This document shows positions 15,929-40,228 of a DNA stretch of 64,000 bases, one piece after another. Numbering within the stretch: the first letter of the stretch is position 1; each line of letters opens with the position of its first letter. The DNA comes from Alphaproteobacteria bacterium (GTDB lineage Bacteria; Pseudomonadota; Alphaproteobacteria; RF32; CAG-239). Below the pieces are notes generated by a model. The model made no database searches. It had not been told where the DNA came from and was given only the letters and a program-made list of their open reading frames with translations. The stretch is taken from NCBI GenBank assembly GCA_047975765.1, contig JBKEEF010000004.1, positions 7,960 through 71,959 of the forward strand, written 5' to 3'. Made by a program: the position numbers and the translations under genes.

Positions 15929-15975
15929 ATACAAGATGTAGTTGTTTTAAATTTTTGTTAAACTATATCTTGTAT
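15929..15975 (+). promoter_or_regulatory. Tandem NrdR boxes upstream of nrdD
   Basis: ATACAAGATGTAGTTG (15929-15944) and AAACTATATCTTGTAT (15960-15975) match acaCwAtATaTwGtg; starts are 31 bp apart. Confidence 0.85.
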
Positions 15976-16025: not shown

Positions 16026-18086
16026 ATGTCAGATGTAAGTTCAGATACCAAAGTTTTAGATTTTGAGAAAGTTCCTTTTGAAAACATCTTGAAAAGAGAT
16101 GGAACTCTTTCTCCATTCGATAGTCATAGAATTTTTAATGCCATTCTCAGAGCTGGAACTTCCACATCTGAATTTGCAGAACAAGAAGCATGGTTGTTGA
16201 CGGCTCAAGTTTTAAAAGTTTTAAAGCACAAATTTGCTGAAACTTTACCAACGATTGAACAAGTTCAAGATGTTGTTGAACAAGTTATCATCTCTGCGAA
16301 TCACTTTTTAACAGCTAAGGCGTATATCTTATATCGTGATCAAAGAAGCAGAACGAGAAGTGATCGCAAAGTGATGGTTGATGTTGAAAGTTCAATTAAT
16401 GAATATTTAGAAAGATTAGATTGGCGTGTGAATGCAAATGCGAATCAGGGCTATTCAAATGGTGGTTTGATTTTGAATGTTTCTGGTAAGGTCACTGCAA
16501 ATTACTGGCTCAGCCATGTTTATCCTGCGGAAATTGGTGAAGCTCACAGAAATGGTGATATGCATATTCACGATTTGGATATGTTGGCAGCCTATTGTGC
16601 TGGCTGGTCTTTGAAAAATTTGCTTCACGAAGGATTTAATGGTGTTTCAGGAAAGGCTGAAGCTGGTCCAGCAAAGCATCTTTCTGCGGCAGTTGGTCAA
16701 ATGGTCAATTTTATGGGAACGCTTCAAAATGAATGGGCAGGGGCACAAGCTTTTTCTTCTGTGGATACCTATCTTGCACCATATGTCCGTAGAGACAATC
16801 TTTCTTACGACCAAGTTTTGCAACAAATTCAGGAACTCATTTATAACTTGAACATTCCTTCTCGTTGGGGTTCTCAAACACCTTTCACAAACTTCACATT
16901 TGACTGGGTTTGCCCAGAAGATTTATGTGATAAACACCCAATTATTGCGGGAGAAGAACAATCTTTCACTTATGGTGATTTAAAACCTGAAATGGATATG
17001 ATTAATAAGTCCTATATCACAGTGATGATGGGGGGAGATATTAAGGGACGTCCATTTACATTCCCAATCCCAACTTATAATATGACGCCAGATTTTCCTT
17101 GGGAAGATGAAAATACAGAACTTCTTTTTGAAATGACCGCAAAATATGGTTTGCCATATTTCCAAAACTTTATAAATTCTGTTTTGAAACCTGGTCAAAT
17201 TCGTTCAATGTGTTGTCGTTTGCAACTTGATTTGCGAGAACTTTTGGCGAGAGGAAATGGTTTGTTTGGTTCTGCTGAACAAACAGGTTCTGTTGGGGTT
17301 GTCACTTTTAACTGCGCAAGACTAGGCTTTGTATATAAGGGCAATGAGGCTGGACTTTTTGGTCGTGTTGATGAGTTGATGCAAATTGCTAAAACAAGTT
17401 TGGAAATCAAAAGAAAAGTCATTACACGCTTGATTGATAATGGTCTTTTCCCATATACAAAACGTTATTTAGGAACTTTACGCAACCACTTCTCAACAAT
17501 TGGTGTGAATGGTATTAACGAAATGATTTTGAACTACACAGATGGCAAATATGACATTGCTTCCGCTTATGGTCAACAATTTGCTGAAAAGTTCTTAGAT
17601 TATATCCGTGCAAAGATGGTTAAAATTCAAGAAGACACGGGACATATGTATAATCTTGAAGCAACTCCTGCCGAAAGTGCAACATATCGTTTTGCACGTG
17701 AAGACAAGAAAAGATTTAATGGAATTATCCAAGCGGGAACGCAAGAGAATCCATACTATACAAATTCTTCTCAACTTCCTGTCGGCTACACAGATGATCC
17801 ATTTGAGGCTTTAGATTTGCAATCTACTTTGCAATCCAAATATACGGGTGGAACGGTGCTTCACCTTTATATGAGCCAAAGACTATCTTCTGCAAAAGTT
17901 TGTCGTGACCTCGTCAAAAGGGTGCTCACAAACTATCGCCTGCCATATGTGACAATTACACCAACATTTTCTGTGTGTCCAAAACATGGATATTTGTCTG
18001 GTGAACATAAATATTGTCCAATTTGTGACGAAGAGAAAAAAGCTGAAAAATTGAGAGTTTTAGAAAACAAAAAAGAGATTGCATAA
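16026..18086 (+). CDS. nrdD: Class III anaerobic ribonucleoside-triphosphate reductase large subunit with ATP-cone, lacking the C-terminal glycyl-radical loop
   Basis: ILKRDG ATP-cone, HIHDLD, QNEWAGAQA, RSMCCRL, EATPAES, YTGGT, CPKH...CPIC; no R-x-x-GY motif before the stop. Confidence 0.95.
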   Translation: MSDVSSDTKVLDFEKVPFENILKRDGTLSPFDSHRIFNAILRAGTSTSEFAEQEAWLLTAQVLKVLKHKFAETLPTIEQVQDVVEQVIISANHFLTAKAYILYRDQRSRTRSDRKVMVDVESSINEYLERLDWRVNANANQGYSNGGLILNVSGKVTANYWLSHVYPAEIGEAHRNGDMHIHDLDMLAAYCAGWSLKNLLHEGFNGVSGKAEAGPAKHLSAAVGQMVNFMGTLQNEWAGAQAFSSVDTYLAPYVRRDNLSYDQVLQQIQELIYNLNIPSRWGSQTPFTNFTFDWVCPEDLCDKHPIIAGEEQSFTYGDLKPEMDMINKSYITVMMGGDIKGRPFTFPIPTYNMTPDFPWEDENTELLFEMTAKYGLPYFQNFINSVLKPGQIRSMCCRLQLDLRELLARGNGLFGSAEQTGSVGVVTFNCARLGFVYKGNEAGLFGRVDELMQIAKTSLEIKRKVITRLIDNGLFPYTKRYLGTLRNHFSTIGVNGINEMILNYTDGKYDIASAYGQQFAEKFLDYIRAKMVKIQEDTGHMYNLEATPAESATYRFAREDKKRFNGIIQAGTQENPYYTNSSQLPVGYTDDPFEALDLQSTLQSKYTGGTVLHLYMSQRLSSAKVCRDLVKRVLTNYRLPYVTITPTFSVCPKHGYLSGEHKYCPICDEEKKAEKLRVLENKKEIA

Positions 18087-18113
18087 ATATATATTTATAA
18101 GGGGGATAAAACA

Positions 18114-18323
18114 ATGAACGTAATTAATTTTAGTGAAATTAAATTGAGTGATGAAGAAAGACAACCTTGCGAAGTTTGGACAAGAGTAATGGGCTATTGC
18201 CGTCCTGTTTCAGAATTCAACAAAGGTAAAAAATCTGAATTTTATTCAAGAGTTTGTTTCACAGAAGAAAAGGCTATGATTAGAATTACAGAGGAAAATG
18301 CACTTGCTTGTGCAGCAGAGTAA
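18114..18323 (+). CDS. Stand-alone NrdD glycyl-radical domain (69 aa)
   Basis: CEVWTRVMGYCRPVSEFNKGKKSEF matches the NrdD C-terminus; own RBS AAGGGGGA. Confidence 0.9.
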   Translation: MNVINFSEIKLSDEERQPCEVWTRVMGYCRPVSEFNKGKKSEFYSRVCFTEEKAMIRITEENALACAAE

Positions 18324-18372
18324 AATTCCTTTGCTTTTATAAAATTTTCATATAAAGTTGGGGTTGCATGTA

Positions 18373-19125
18373 ATGTCATCAGTAGTAGAATTTAATAATA
18401 AATGTTCTGAACCTGATGAGAAGGCATGCAGCTCTATTTTTATTGGCGGAATTGAAAAGTTTAGTGTTGTTGACTATCCTGGAAAAATTTCCGCCGTTGT
18501 TTTTTTAAAGGGTTGTCCTTGGCGTTGTCCATTTTGCTATAACACGCATCTACAAAAGCTAGATAATGAAACAAATTTTTTCTGGCATCAGTTTAAAAAT
18601 TTTTTAGAAAAAAGAAAGGGCATCTTAGACGCTGTTGTTTTTAGTGGTGGCGAGCCTTTGATGCAGAAAAAAATCGTTGGAGCTATTCAAGAAGTTAAAG
18701 CATTAGGGTTTCAAATAGGGGTTCACACTGGTGGCTATTACCCTGAAACTTTGAAAGAAATTATCCCTCTCGTTGACTGGGTTGGTTTTGATGTCAAAGC
18801 TCCATTTGAAAAAGAACGTTACAAAAAGTCGGTGGGAGGTGTCGAGAGCCTTGATAAAACTATACAAAGCCTTCAAGTGTTGTTGGATAGTAAAGTCAAT
18901 TTTGAAACGAGAACAACCTGTGATCCTCGAATTTTGAGCATTGAAGATATTTATACAATTGCGAAAGATTTGAAATTACGTGGTGTTAGGAAATATAATC
19001 TACAAAGATATCGTCAAGTCCAAGGAGATAATACTCCAGATGAAGAATGTGAAAAATTTTTCAATGATGAAAAACTTAGAGATTTTTTAGAAGCTAGTTT
19101 TGAAGTTGTAGAATTTAGAAGATAA
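18373..19125 (+). CDS. nrdG: Anaerobic RNR activating enzyme (radical SAM)
   Basis: SVVDYPGK, GCPWRCPFCYN (CxxxCxxC), FSGGEP, FETRTT. Confidence 0.93.
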   Translation: MSSVVEFNNKCSEPDEKACSSIFIGGIEKFSVVDYPGKISAVVFLKGCPWRCPFCYNTHLQKLDNETNFFWHQFKNFLEKRKGILDAVVFSGGEPLMQKKIVGAIQEVKALGFQIGVHTGGYYPETLKEIIPLVDWVGFDVKAPFEKERYKKSVGGVESLDKTIQSLQVLLDSKVNFETRTTCDPRILSIEDIYTIAKDLKLRGVRKYNLQRYRQVQGDNTPDEECEKFFNDEKLRDFLEASFEVVEFRR

Positions 19126-19141: not shown

Positions 19142-19555
19142 ATGACTGGAAAATTAAGACCAATTGCTGTGGCTTTATTGAGGCACGGTAATAAACTTTT
19201 GGCAATGAAAGGCTATGACAAAGTTAAAGATGAAGTTTTCTACCGCCTTCTTGGTGGTGGAATTGAATTTGGAGAAACTTCAAGAGAAACAATTCAAAGA
19301 GAATTTATGGAAGAACTTGCTGTTGAAGTAGAGGTTCAAGAAAGACTTGATGTTGAAGAAAATATTTTCACATTCAATGGTAAACAAGGACATGAAATTG
19401 TGTTTTTATATAATGCCAAATTCAAAGATAAATCTCTTTATGAAAAGACTGACTTTGACTTTGTAGAAGAAGGAAAGACAACAGAAACGGTTGGTTGGGT
19501 AAAGATAAATGATGATGCGATTATCTATCCTGAAATCGCAAAGAAATATTTGTAG
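19142..19555 (+). CDS. NUDIX hydrolase
   Basis: GGGIEFGETSRETIQREFMEELA Nudix box; ENIFTFNGKQGHEIVF. Confidence 0.9.
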   Translation: MTGKLRPIAVALLRHGNKLLAMKGYDKVKDEVFYRLLGGGIEFGETSRETIQREFMEELAVEVEVQERLDVEENIFTFNGKQGHEIVFLYNAKFKDKSLYEKTDFDFVEEGKTTETVGWVKINDDAIIYPEIAKKYL

Positions 19556-19613: not shown

Positions 19614-20237
19614 TTAATTAACACATTTTCCACCGGCATCACCAGTTATTCCTTTGCTAGCATCTGTAGCTGTAATGCATCTGACGCAATTTAATTTCCA
19701 GCCATTTGGTGCTGCGTAATCTGCAGAGGTTAGCAACGATCTGCCTGAAGCATAACATTTTTGGTAAGAGCCAGTGTATATTTTAACAGCAGCAGGGCAG
19801 TCATTCTTAGTTCTAGTATCACCATTTGTTCCTGAAATATATTTACTTCCTTTCCACTCAGAACCCAGAGTTCTACAATCACCTAGTCTTATACATTTAT
19901 AAGTGCAACTGTCATATTCAGCACATTCTGTATAGTCTTCAGGGAAAACTTCTGTATTATTTGAAACACAAGTACATTTTGAATATTTATCACCACCTAA
20001 AGTGTTTTTAGATGATGGGCAATTTATTGAATCATATTTGTAAATGTTTGCATCGCATATTTCTCCGCAGAAAAACTTTGTTTCATCTGTTGGGCAAGCA
20101 ACTTTATTTTTGCCTGCACAAGCTGCTGCAGTATTCGTATATCCAAGTGTTGAACAGCTTGGTGCTGTTTGTGCATTTGCATTGCCCACTGAAAAAGCCA
20201 AGAATGCAAAAGCTGTAAGGGTAATTATTTTTTTCAT
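19614..20237 (-). CDS. Secreted cysteine-rich protein
   Basis: Signal peptide ending ANA-Q; PSCSTLGY...C...CPTDETKFFC motif; many Cys. Confidence 0.8.
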   Translation of the reverse strand: MKKIITLTAFAFLAFSVGNANAQTAPSCSTLGYTNTAAACAGKNKVACPTDETKFFCGEICDANIYKYDSINCPSSKNTLGGDKYSKCTCVSNNTEVFPEDYTECAEYDSCTYKCIRLGDCRTLGSEWKGSKYISGTNGDTRTKNDCPAAVKIYTGSYQKCYASGRSLLTSADYAAPNGWKLNCVRCITATDASKGITGDAGGKCVN

Positions 20238-20270
20238 TTTATCTCTCCAAACTTTTTATTAAAATTACTG

Positions 20271-21529
20271 TTAGTCGCCATTACATTCAAGACAGCAGCG
20301 GTGCCATGAGTCAACATCACAAGCTCCTGTTCCTTCTCCAACAGCTCCATTATGATAGCATTGATTTCCTAATTCGTTGTATCTTGCATGACATTGTTGA
20401 CCAGTTTGATATGCACTGAATTCTGAACATGAACGATTTTTATAGTATCCATATTCATTTGAACAAGATGATTTTGTGGTGTTTGATGGTGTATAACAAC
20501 TTGTGTAACATGTTTTTCCATAATAAGACACGGAAGTACATGTTTGTCCGCTTGGAATTGAACTTTGATATCCACCGAGAGCACAGGTTACAGTTACACA
20601 ATCTTTGTAACATGATTTTCCTTCATAAAAAACTCCATTACAGATCTTTCCACTTGGAACACTATCTACATATCCGCCATCTTCACAAGTTATCTCTTTC
20701 TTATCTGCTAAACAAAATTCTTTTGTTGTATCAAAAGGACATTTGATAGAAGAATGACCTGAAAATTCATGTTGAATCCAAGTTCTGAACACGTAGGAAT
20801 GATAACACAGGTTTTTGTTCCGGCTGTTGAATGTTTTCTCTTGTTAACATCAAGGAAATATTTCAAATCTCCATTTGCCCAATATGTATTCAAATCTACA
20901 GTTCCAGAAGGACAAGTTGGCTCTTCACAACTCGTATATTTTGTTCCAGAACTATCTGTACAAGATTGTGAACCAGTAGCTCCTTTGCCTGTTGAACATT
21001 TTTTATAGATTGACGGGTCACAAACGCATTCTTTATATTTTCCGTCACAAGATTCACCAGAACCAATCATTCCTGCTGGACAGGTTTTGAATGTGTCTGG
21101 ACATTTACATTCAGGATAGTGCGTGTTGTTACAATTTGTAGAACCAGCTAAAATCTTAGGGCTTTCACAATTGTCCTTTGTGTATGGGAATTTTGTTTCA
21201 TTACAACCACATTCAGTATATTGTGTGTTATTACAAATTTCACCACCCAGCATGTCAGCTGAGCAGTTTCCAATATGAAATTTATATTTGTTTATATCGC
21301 ATCGACAACTTCTCCAATAGTTTCCATTAGGACATTTGTCATAGAGTGTTCGATTGAGTGTGCAGTCAGAACTTCTGATGGTGTAACAAGGTTTTTGATT
21401 AGGGTCACCATAAGCATCGTCTTTCTTTTCAATGAAATGGACAGCTGCATTTGCGTGGCTCATGGTAACAGCACATAATATCATAACTGCTAATGTGAGC
21501 ATAATTCCTTTATAATTTTTCATTTGCAT
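20271..21529 (-). pseudogene. Secreted cysteine-rich repeat protein, frameshifted near 20760-20775 (ORFs 20708-21529 + 20271-20792)
   Basis: PTCSELGFNM in one frame continues as SGHSSIKCPFDTTKEFC in the -1 frame, rebuilding the motif found intact in the neighbouring gene; GGAGG RBS before 21529. Confidence 0.7.
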
Positions 21530-39035: not shown

Positions 39036-40228
39036 AGAAAAGATTTTCCTGTTTTGAATGGTTCTAATTTGAAATAGGCTGCAATTGTTTGAGCAATATC
39101 AGCAAAAGTGTCACGTTGTCCGATATCTTGAATTTTGACTTTATGACCAAACATAATTACAGGAACTTGTTCTCTAGTGTGATCTGTGCCAACATAAGAA
39201 GGGTCACAACCATGGTCAGCAGTGATGAAAACAAGGTCATCTTCTTTGAGCAAAGGTTCAATTTCAGGAAGACGTTTGTCAAAATATTCCAGGCCTTTCG
39301 CATAACCTTCGACATATCTTCTGTGCCCCCACATCATGTCAAAATCCACAAAATTTGTGAAGATAATAGAGTTGTCTGGAGCTGTTTTGACTTCTTCTAA
39401 AGTCACATCCCAAAGTTCTTCCAAGCCACTTGCTTTGCGCGCTTTAGTGATTCCACAGTTGGCATAAATATCAGCAATTTTGCCAATGGAAATAACATTG
39501 CCACCACTGTCTTTGAGTTTATCCAAAACCGTCGGAGCAGGTGGGGTAACAGAATAATCATGACGATTTTTGGTGCGAACAAATTCACCTTTCTTTTCAC
39601 CAGAAAAAGGACGAGCAATAATACGTGCCACATTATATGGTTTTGCAAGTTCAAAAGTGATTTCACAAAGTTTGTAGAGATTTTCTAGCCCGAATTTTTC
39701 TTCATGAACAGCAATTTGAATCACACTATCTGCAGAAGTATAGAAAATTGGCTTTCCAGTTTTGAGATGTTCTTCACCTAGTTCATTTATGATTTCTGTT
39801 CCTGAAGCTGCTTTGTTGCCCAAAATACCTTCAATATTAGCTTGTTTGCAAATTTTATTTACCAAGCTTTCAGGAAAAGAAGGAAATTCTTTTGGAAAAT
39901 AGCCCCATTCCCTGAGAACAGGAACGCCAGCCATTTCCCAGTGGCCAGATGAAGTATCTTTTGCAACACTCAATTCGCTCATATGTCCAAATTTTGCAGG
40001 AAGCGTGATTCTTGGGGCTATATCTTGAACACCAAGAACAGGGTAAAGTCCACAAGCACCTTTTGCTGCTTGGGCTAGACCGAGTTTTTGTAAGTTTGGA
40101 ATTTGAAGTCCACCACTAAGATTAGCGATATGCCCGAAAGTGTTGGCTGTCAAATCTCCAAATTTTTCAGCATCTTTCGCACCACCAATACCAAAACTGT
40201 CCATCATCAAAATCACAACACGTCCCAT
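39032..40228 (-). CDS. deoB: Phosphopentomutase
   Basis: [50 protein letters not shown]. Confidence 0.96.

Follow-up and report, generated by a model that had tools for sequence, protein, structure and literature searches.

Where does a class III ribonucleotide reductase (RNR) keep its glycyl radical when the catalytic protein, NrdD, ends before the radical loop begins? The question is raised by a 64,000-nt stretch of an alphaproteobacterial genome (contig JBKEEF010000004.1; hereafter the window, to which all coordinates refer), in which the nrdD gene for a protein of 686 residues, here termed the large chain, is followed by an open reading frame (ORF) for a protein of 69 residues, the small chain, and by nrdG for the activase. 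Our analysis indicates that the locus very probably encodes an obligate two-chain class III RNR, consisting of a loop-less catalytic chain of 686 residues and a loop chain of 69. A first-pass annotation had listed the loop-less NrdD, the 69-residue ORF, nrdG and tandem NrdR boxes, and its coordinates and features were all correct.

The large chain is encoded on the forward strand (16026..18086) and was assigned from its ORF and profile matches. It contains, in this order, an ATP cone (residues 20-108), an NxN flap (N136/N138), the catalytic barrel, an MCCR finger loop, a zinc site and a charged tail of 19 residues. Pfam recognizes the ATP cone and positions 2-535 of the 562 in the NRDD profile (PF13597), and the curated cut-offs for NrdD of class III RNRs are exceeded for PRK08270 (1097 bits, cut-off 548, profile positions 3-652 of 684) as well as for TIGR02487 (471 bits, cut-off 326). 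The finger loop, M395-C396-C397-R398 (17208..17219, forward strand), is of the double-cysteine type according to the motif classes in the available part of PMC9669993, and C397 and R398 are invariant in 40 aligned sequences. The zinc site that class III RNRs have ahead of the glycyl loop is present, as identified by alignment, in the form C651-x2-H654...C664-x2-C667 (17976..18026, forward strand); its knuckle glycine, G655, aligns with G650 of the enzyme from Cupriavidus necator H16. The R-x-x-G-Y loop that such enzymes carry at the C-terminus of the same chain is found here on the 69-residue ORF: a motif scan detected R-x-x-G-[YF] nowhere in the 686 residues, and the large chain ends 19 residues past CPKH..CPIC at a TAA stop (18084..18086, forward strand). 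Because the loop lies off the large chain and on the small ORF, we class the locus as a two-chain variant.

The small ORF (18114..18323, forward strand) starts with an ATG that is in frame with nrdD, one TAA and nine sense codons intervening, and is preceded at a distance of 8 nt by a Shine-Dalgarno-like AGGGGG (18100..18105, forward strand); GGAG-like elements are also visible ahead of the small ORF in some relatives. PF13597 matches its product over positions 531-562 (34.5 bits, cut-off 26.2) and PRK08270 over positions 649-682, such that the two chains cover both profiles in a complementary fashion and without a gap (2-535 and 531-562 for PF13597, 3-652 and 649-682 for PRK08270). A hidden Markov model (HMM) built from the loops of 58 one-piece enzymes scores 56.5 bits for the small chain of the window and 55.6 bits for that of C. 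necator H16, and matches the large chain of neither. By homology, the radical would reside on Gly27 in the sequence RVMGY (codon 18192..18194, forward strand); this glycine is invariant in 72 aligned sequences, and R-V-M-G-Y is invariant in all 69 small chains compared. The small ORF is under purifying selection, as judged from the 39-codon core, for which comparison of 75 sequence pairs gave medians of 0.085 for nonsynonymous (pN) and 0.71 for synonymous (pS) differences per site and a pN/pS of 0.12. A sequence search of the PDB with the small chain returned no match at E values up to 10, and PF01228, the Gly_radical family of the pyruvate formate-lyase (PFL) type, matched neither the small ORF nor, in a search of the genome, anything on contig C23. 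All 69 relatives share the terminal -AAE of the small chain (18315-18323), whereas large chains end with -VA, -AE or -IA; in the genome only 2 of 4839 open frames end with AAE. This end may possibly serve as a C-terminal degradation signal; a transfer-messenger RNA for comparison was not found.

Downstream, nrdG (18373..19125, forward strand) encodes a radical S-adenosylmethionine (SAM) activase of the NrdG2 type with 250 residues if translation starts at ATG 18373 (255 residues from TTG 18358), which matches TIGR02495 (194.3 bits, cut-off 131.15) and PF04055. The dedicated radical SAM activase that characterizes class III RNR loci is thus encoded beside the gene. On the forward strand, neither of the two gaps that separate large ORF, small ORF and nrdG showed a terminator-like site, and a promoter scan remained at chance level (19 vs. 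15.3). Upstream of the operon lie two NrdR boxes (15929..15944 and, 15 nt further on, 15960..15975), each with all six key bases C4, A6, A8, T9, T11 and G13 (listed in the available text of PMC13584703). Pairs of boxes were scored by this six-base rule, since an idealised box with three mismatches misses real boxes; genome-wide, five pairs were found where 0.66 are expected, three of them ahead of RNR operons. The genome encodes NrdR (TIGR00244 above cut-off) and also a class I nrdAB, again behind an NrdR pair. Among relatives with sufficient upstream DNA, 64 of 75 have an NrdR pair in front of the operon.

The first-pass annotation had considered a real split more likely than a nonsense error and had proposed a survey of nrdD loci; a real split is supported by our survey. 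In the same family, 24 genomes were searched and all 23 that hold the gene show the small ORF after a large ORF without a loop. Among 80 GTDB loci, which are kin rather than independent samples and stem mostly from uncultured Alphaproteobacteria, 75 are split and not one is one-piece; the remaining five comprise three in which no zinc site was parsed, one with an open end and one whose contig ends 43 nt past the stop. In the 75 split loci the small ORF lies in frame 0, 1 or 2 relative to nrdD in 26, 22 and 27 cases, and the gap measures 25-51 nt. A genome of the same genus (G002, protein 96% identical) is split with the small ORF in another frame, and spacer indels of net +1, +1 and -4 break the in-frame phase in three strain-level contigs; these contigs are about 92% alike, and the TAA stop is not among the 40 substitutions listed for them (98 further rows exist). 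The loop is absent from all 120 closest homologues of the large chain. We regard it as confirmed from these comparisons that the split is real, and since it is conserved while the three frames are about equally frequent in relatives, both a sequencing error and conserved read-through are excluded. A supporting argument from linker length held only in part: read-through would place 52 residues between the last zinc cysteine and the motif arginine, compared with 8 or 10 in 53 parsed one-piece relatives, but a fused NrdD with a linker of 22 residues (L188) makes this argument weaker than the scatter of frames. L188 comes from a genome in the same class; its linker is flanked on either side by split-type sequence, and it is possibly a re-fusion. 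Divergence of the large chain correlates with that of the small chain (Spearman 0.55) no better than with that of NrdG (0.53), and is therefore no evidence of specific co-evolution.

Do the two chains fit together? The first-pass annotation had suggested modelling the complex, and a prediction with the small chain, zinc and large-chain residues 112-686 passed with a score of 0.81 compared with 0.00 for the best of three controls; among solved complexes 116 of 157 attain this mark, among mismatched pairs 2 of 215, and these counts are only a rough guide here. At least 89% of contacts recur between separate runs, the partner pLDDT (predicted local distance difference test) is at least 77 and the predicted interface comprises 171-184 contacts. 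The best-defined of these predicted contacts connect residues 17-22 of the small chain with a strand (647-651) and with residues 660-667 of the zinc ribbon of the large chain, including C664 and C667. In the model, the loop region inserts into the barrel and E550 of the large chain is part of the interface; this residue maps to Glu581 of Prevotella copri NrdD, which binds the tyrosine after the radical glycine, and both the N136/N138 flap and E550, the equivalents of which contact the loop in the P. copri enzyme, are retained (mapping based on the available part of PMC11226230). The model thus supports docking of the small chain on the large chain, as a prediction. There is also a hint, confounded by kinship, that Cys19 of the small chain helps to anchor it at the zinc: in the model it touches C651 and C664, and the position is a cysteine in 118 of 119 small homologues and, among viral ones, in 38 of 39, whereas 17 of 58 one-piece relatives have it there.

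How could such an enzyme work? The radical domain of one-piece NrdD flips outward, NrdG abstracts the hydrogen from the glycine and the domain returns (PMC12662201, available part). By analogy, the two chains would assemble into one working enzyme with the small chain docked on the zinc ribbon of the large chain, NrdG would use SAM to abstract a hydrogen from Gly27 of the small chain, and the radical would then pass to a finger-loop cysteine of the large chain, where nucleoside triphosphates would be reduced. That NrdG activates Gly27 and that the docked small chain hands the radical on to the finger loop is, in our estimation, highly probable. Since the large chain never has a loop of its own, the small chain would be an obligate subunit and not a spare. 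A further, weaker step starts from the observation that oxygen cleaves the backbone of glycyl radical enzymes at the radical glycine (PMC13450708, available part): cleavage would here affect the small chain only, and fresh copies could be swapped in. We consider replacement of the small chain after oxygen damage possible, at somewhat less than an even chance. Such swapping would explain why there are additional, solo genes for small chains.

Solo genes are found in the same genome and well beyond it. On contig C11 the genome holds a second class III RNR (L001:1072-4006) of the PRK07111 type, with an MGCR finger loop and a large chain of 746 residues, that is split at the same point; its small ORF of 62 residues overlaps the stop of the large chain and differs in loop sequence, the genes are joined by TAATG overlaps, and an NrdR pair lies upstream. 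This system is also split in both genomes of the same genus, and neither NrdD core of the genome under study has a glycyl loop. A third small ORF, likewise of 62 residues (L004:1450-1638, contig C22), resides without an adjoining core or activase gene in a Mu-like prophage at about 38.8-73 kb, labelled by eye with its endolysin confirmed by PHROGs. The encoded peptide is identical to the C11 small chain in 38 of 46 positions and to that of the window in 12 of 30. Away from the operon, ten further matches to the small ORF were detected in 6 of 25 NrdD-bearing relatives, with neither core nor NrdG in the flanks examined. Two of them, from G004 and G021 (L120:5911-6120 and L123:6031-6249), are chromosomal and, alone among the nine parsed solo copies, have tandem NrdR boxes of their own; several others are located among phage- or plasmid-like genes. 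In IMG/VR, 32 of 42 loci retrieved with the small protein of the window lack an NrdD core in their flanks (28 of them with at least 2.5 kb upstream), and the same applies to 72 of the best 80 out of at least 571 loci retrieved with the prophage peptide (59 with at least 2.5 kb upstream); these flanks span 5-6 kb, and a core may be encoded elsewhere on the same contigs. GenBank phage searches for the small gene gave few informative matches. The solo small genes with NrdR pairs, the prophage copy matched in subtype and the viral loci without a core in their flanks speak for action in trans.

Loop-less NrdDs are widespread. The best 150 representatives of clusters at 50% identity comprise 67 loop-less proteins with a tail, 10 that end just past the zinc site, 59 one-piece enzymes and 14 unclear cases; these are proteins without genomic context, their labels are partly hand-corrected, and some of the loop-less ones may be truncated. 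On a FastTree phylogeny with 138 rows the state changes 19 times between loop-less and one-piece, of which at least 10 changes are forced by starred branches; the tree is unrooted and reads the same for gain as for loss of the split. A single clade of loop-less forms was rejected by the approximately unbiased test (p-AU 8e-47, 36 rows hand-picked to span the tree), and on this sequence evidence loop-less NrdDs do not form one clade. A sample of 200 genomes from the phylum contained 24 with NrdD, namely 19 one-piece, four split with an adjacent small ORF and one loop-less whose small ORFs are all on other contigs; a loop-less NrdD is present in five of the eight genomes of this sample that have the SMCCR finger loop of the window. 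Two loci deserve separate mention: L194 has a loop-less core with neither small ORF nor nrdG seen downstream and three small ORFs on other contigs (genome with 6% contamination), and L199 is a frame of about 103 residues matching PF13597 positions 498-562, that is, zinc site and loop; its genome also has an intact NrdD, at a distant place, and the frame comes closer to a true GrcA-like spare. On plasmids, 161 records match the small protein, mostly from Ralstonia and also from Bradyrhizobium, Cupriavidus and Paracoccus. Among them, pHG1 of C. necator H16 (L036:2456-4829) is annotated in RefSeq with a 676-residue reductase, a separate 66-residue 'nrdD' after a gap of 142 nt, and an activase. 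C. necator H16 has the same split, as apparent from its sequence: the R-x-x-G-Y loop sits on the downstream 66-residue gene, and G650 is the zinc-knuckle glycine of the large chain.

Several points weigh against the two-chain enzyme or its individual steps. The radical, the activity and the binding of both chains are deduced from sequence and a model. The model itself may have passed on account of its likeness to solved one-piece NrdDs, the alignment for the large chain included one-piece relatives, and C396 and C397 of the finger loop are not among its confident interface residues. A 1999 study by Siedow reportedly assigned the radical of the H16 enzyme to G650 of the large chain, since a G650A exchange lost function. 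Replacement of damaged small chains in particular has to be reconciled with the fact that 19 of the 24 NrdD-bearing genomes of the phylum sample keep a one-piece enzyme, that only two of nine parsed solo copies have an NrdR pair and that the genome already possesses, for aerobic periods, a class I RNR under NrdR control.

Neutral gene fission, which competes with the replacement step only, is the strongest alternative, and we rate it just short of even. It would have produced a permanent complex that acts like one-piece NrdD and has no role in repair. The repeated changes of state on the tree (at least 10, up to 19), the rejection of a single clade and the fused form with its longer linker are what a hinge that is easily cut would give, and the large predicted interface suggests tight binding. 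Solo copies that are controlled by NrdR or carried by phages would, on the other hand, hardly be maintained by selection unless extra small chain were useful, and both class III systems of the genome are split at the same point in spite of belonging to different subfamilies. Returning to the exchangeable chain, we put forward, as a tentative generalization that may well fail, that many class III RNRs are modular, with the radical on an exchangeable chain of 55-70 residues that has arisen repeatedly, is topped up from NrdR-controlled genes and is matched in subtype by phage copies sustaining anaerobic dNTP synthesis of the host.

Far less probable is a radical on G655 in the C-x2-H-G knuckle of the large chain, with the small ORF as an accessory. 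What speaks for it is the reported G650A phenotype of H16, which concerns the same knuckle glycine. However, 52 of the 59 one-piece relatives, which bear R-x-x-G-Y too, retain this glycine, and it thus behaves as a structural residue of the zinc knuckle, so that loss of the zinc ribbon accounts better for the G650A phenotype; moreover, the loop HMM recognizes the small chain of the window and that of H16 and neither of the large chains. A single polypeptide formed by stop-codon read-through or programmed frameshifting is very improbable: it is suggested by the two ORFs of the window being in frame across one TAA, but relatives use all three frames, the gap in H16 is much longer, the spacer carries indels even among strain-level contigs and a Shine-Dalgarno-like site precedes the small ORF. 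A sequencing error or pseudogene is barely credible, since, even though the window stems from a single assembly and the best sequencing run shares 0.11 of its words (none shares half), none of the 80 loci is one-piece, the congeneric G002 has its split in a different frame and selection on the small ORF is purifying.

With regard to known systems, the two-chain enzyme shares the barrel, ATP cone, NxN flap and finger loop with one-piece NrdD/NrdG (Thermotoga maritima 4COI/4U3E, P. copri 8P23, 9D3X, 1H78; PRK08270, TIGR02487), and also the zinc site, the R-x-x-G-Y loop sequence, the adjacent nrdG and the NrdR boxes. It differs in that the loop is a separate gene product, the cut being inside the glycyl radical domain, so that the zinc ligands remain with the large chain. 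The first-pass annotation had pointed to GrcA/YfiD of PFL, and this analogy was upheld insofar as GrcA is a small stand-alone homologue of the C-terminal radical domain of its enzyme with a short extra N-terminus (PMC13450708, available part), just as the small gene is homologous to NrdD and also occurs as solo chromosomal and phage genes. It fails in that GrcA substitutes for the cleaved end of a full-length PFL, whereas the large chain studied here never bears a loop and the small chain is obligate; nor does the small ORF match PF01228. The available text of the same 2026 review describes spare parts for formate lyases only, treats other glycyl radical enzymes as undetermined and gives class III RNRs no in-depth coverage. 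The class II enzyme NrdJa/NrdJb of Pseudomonas aeruginosa is likewise a natural two-gene RNR with a separate C-terminal part that contains a zinc finger, but it is B12-dependent, and its second chain is large and supplies a reducing cysteine pair and no protein radical (PMC4520616, PMC9669993, available parts). Phage nrdD genes with introns, inteins or breaks also have their coding sequence in more than one piece; in the accessible part of PMC3653736 these arise from the insertion of mobile elements or, in phiAS4, from fragmentation of one gene, rather than from a conserved fission that gives the second piece a start of its own past the zinc site.

No description of a two-gene NrdD layout was found in the literature searched, a scope outside which lie most subscription papers and all supplements, including those of RNR phylogenies that could mention it. 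The layout is not described in the available parts of PMC9669993, PMC4390871, PMC9531940, PMC11528403, PMC3653736, PMC12288474, PMC11226230, PMC2864759, PMC13584703, PMC3019208, PMC2795772, PMC4860495, PMC12662201 and PMC13450708, and PMC3711429 contains no RNR terms. The caution about novelty in the first-pass annotation was well placed: the layout is widespread and the small gene is already annotated by RefSeq.

Glycyl radical enzymes are portrayed as single chains destroyed by oxygen, and the existence of a natural two-chain NrdD makes spare parts beyond PFL testable, with C. necator H16 as a tractable strain and the 69-residue chain as a substrate for the study of NrdG. The split explains many annotated NrdDs that lack a radical glycine. 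It also implies that a clone of 'nrdD plus nrdG' lacking the small gene would yield a dead enzyme, and that surveys excluding proteins of less than 400 residues (as in the available text of PMC9531940) miss the second chain. Phage-borne solo copies would represent a compact auxiliary metabolic gene. If the tentative generalization to modular class III RNRs is true, a built-in spare-part design would exist beyond the formate lyases, and the H16 enzyme would have its radical glycine encoded by a gene long omitted from its nrdDG operon.

A few observations concern the surroundings of the locus and the wider search. A gene for a NUDIX hydrolase (19142-19555) follows nrdG on the same strand after 16 nt and may be co-transcribed. 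Next come cysteine-rich ORFs with signal-peptide-like starts (207, 173 and 273 residues; minus strand, 19614-21529), which may be pieces of one repeat protein. A second NrdR-like pair at 39984-40030 is within the chance expectation of 0.66 pairs. Finally, many of the proteins P0243-P0392 comprise 900-1900 residues, and their matches to the query fall into several stretches, as intein insertions would give.

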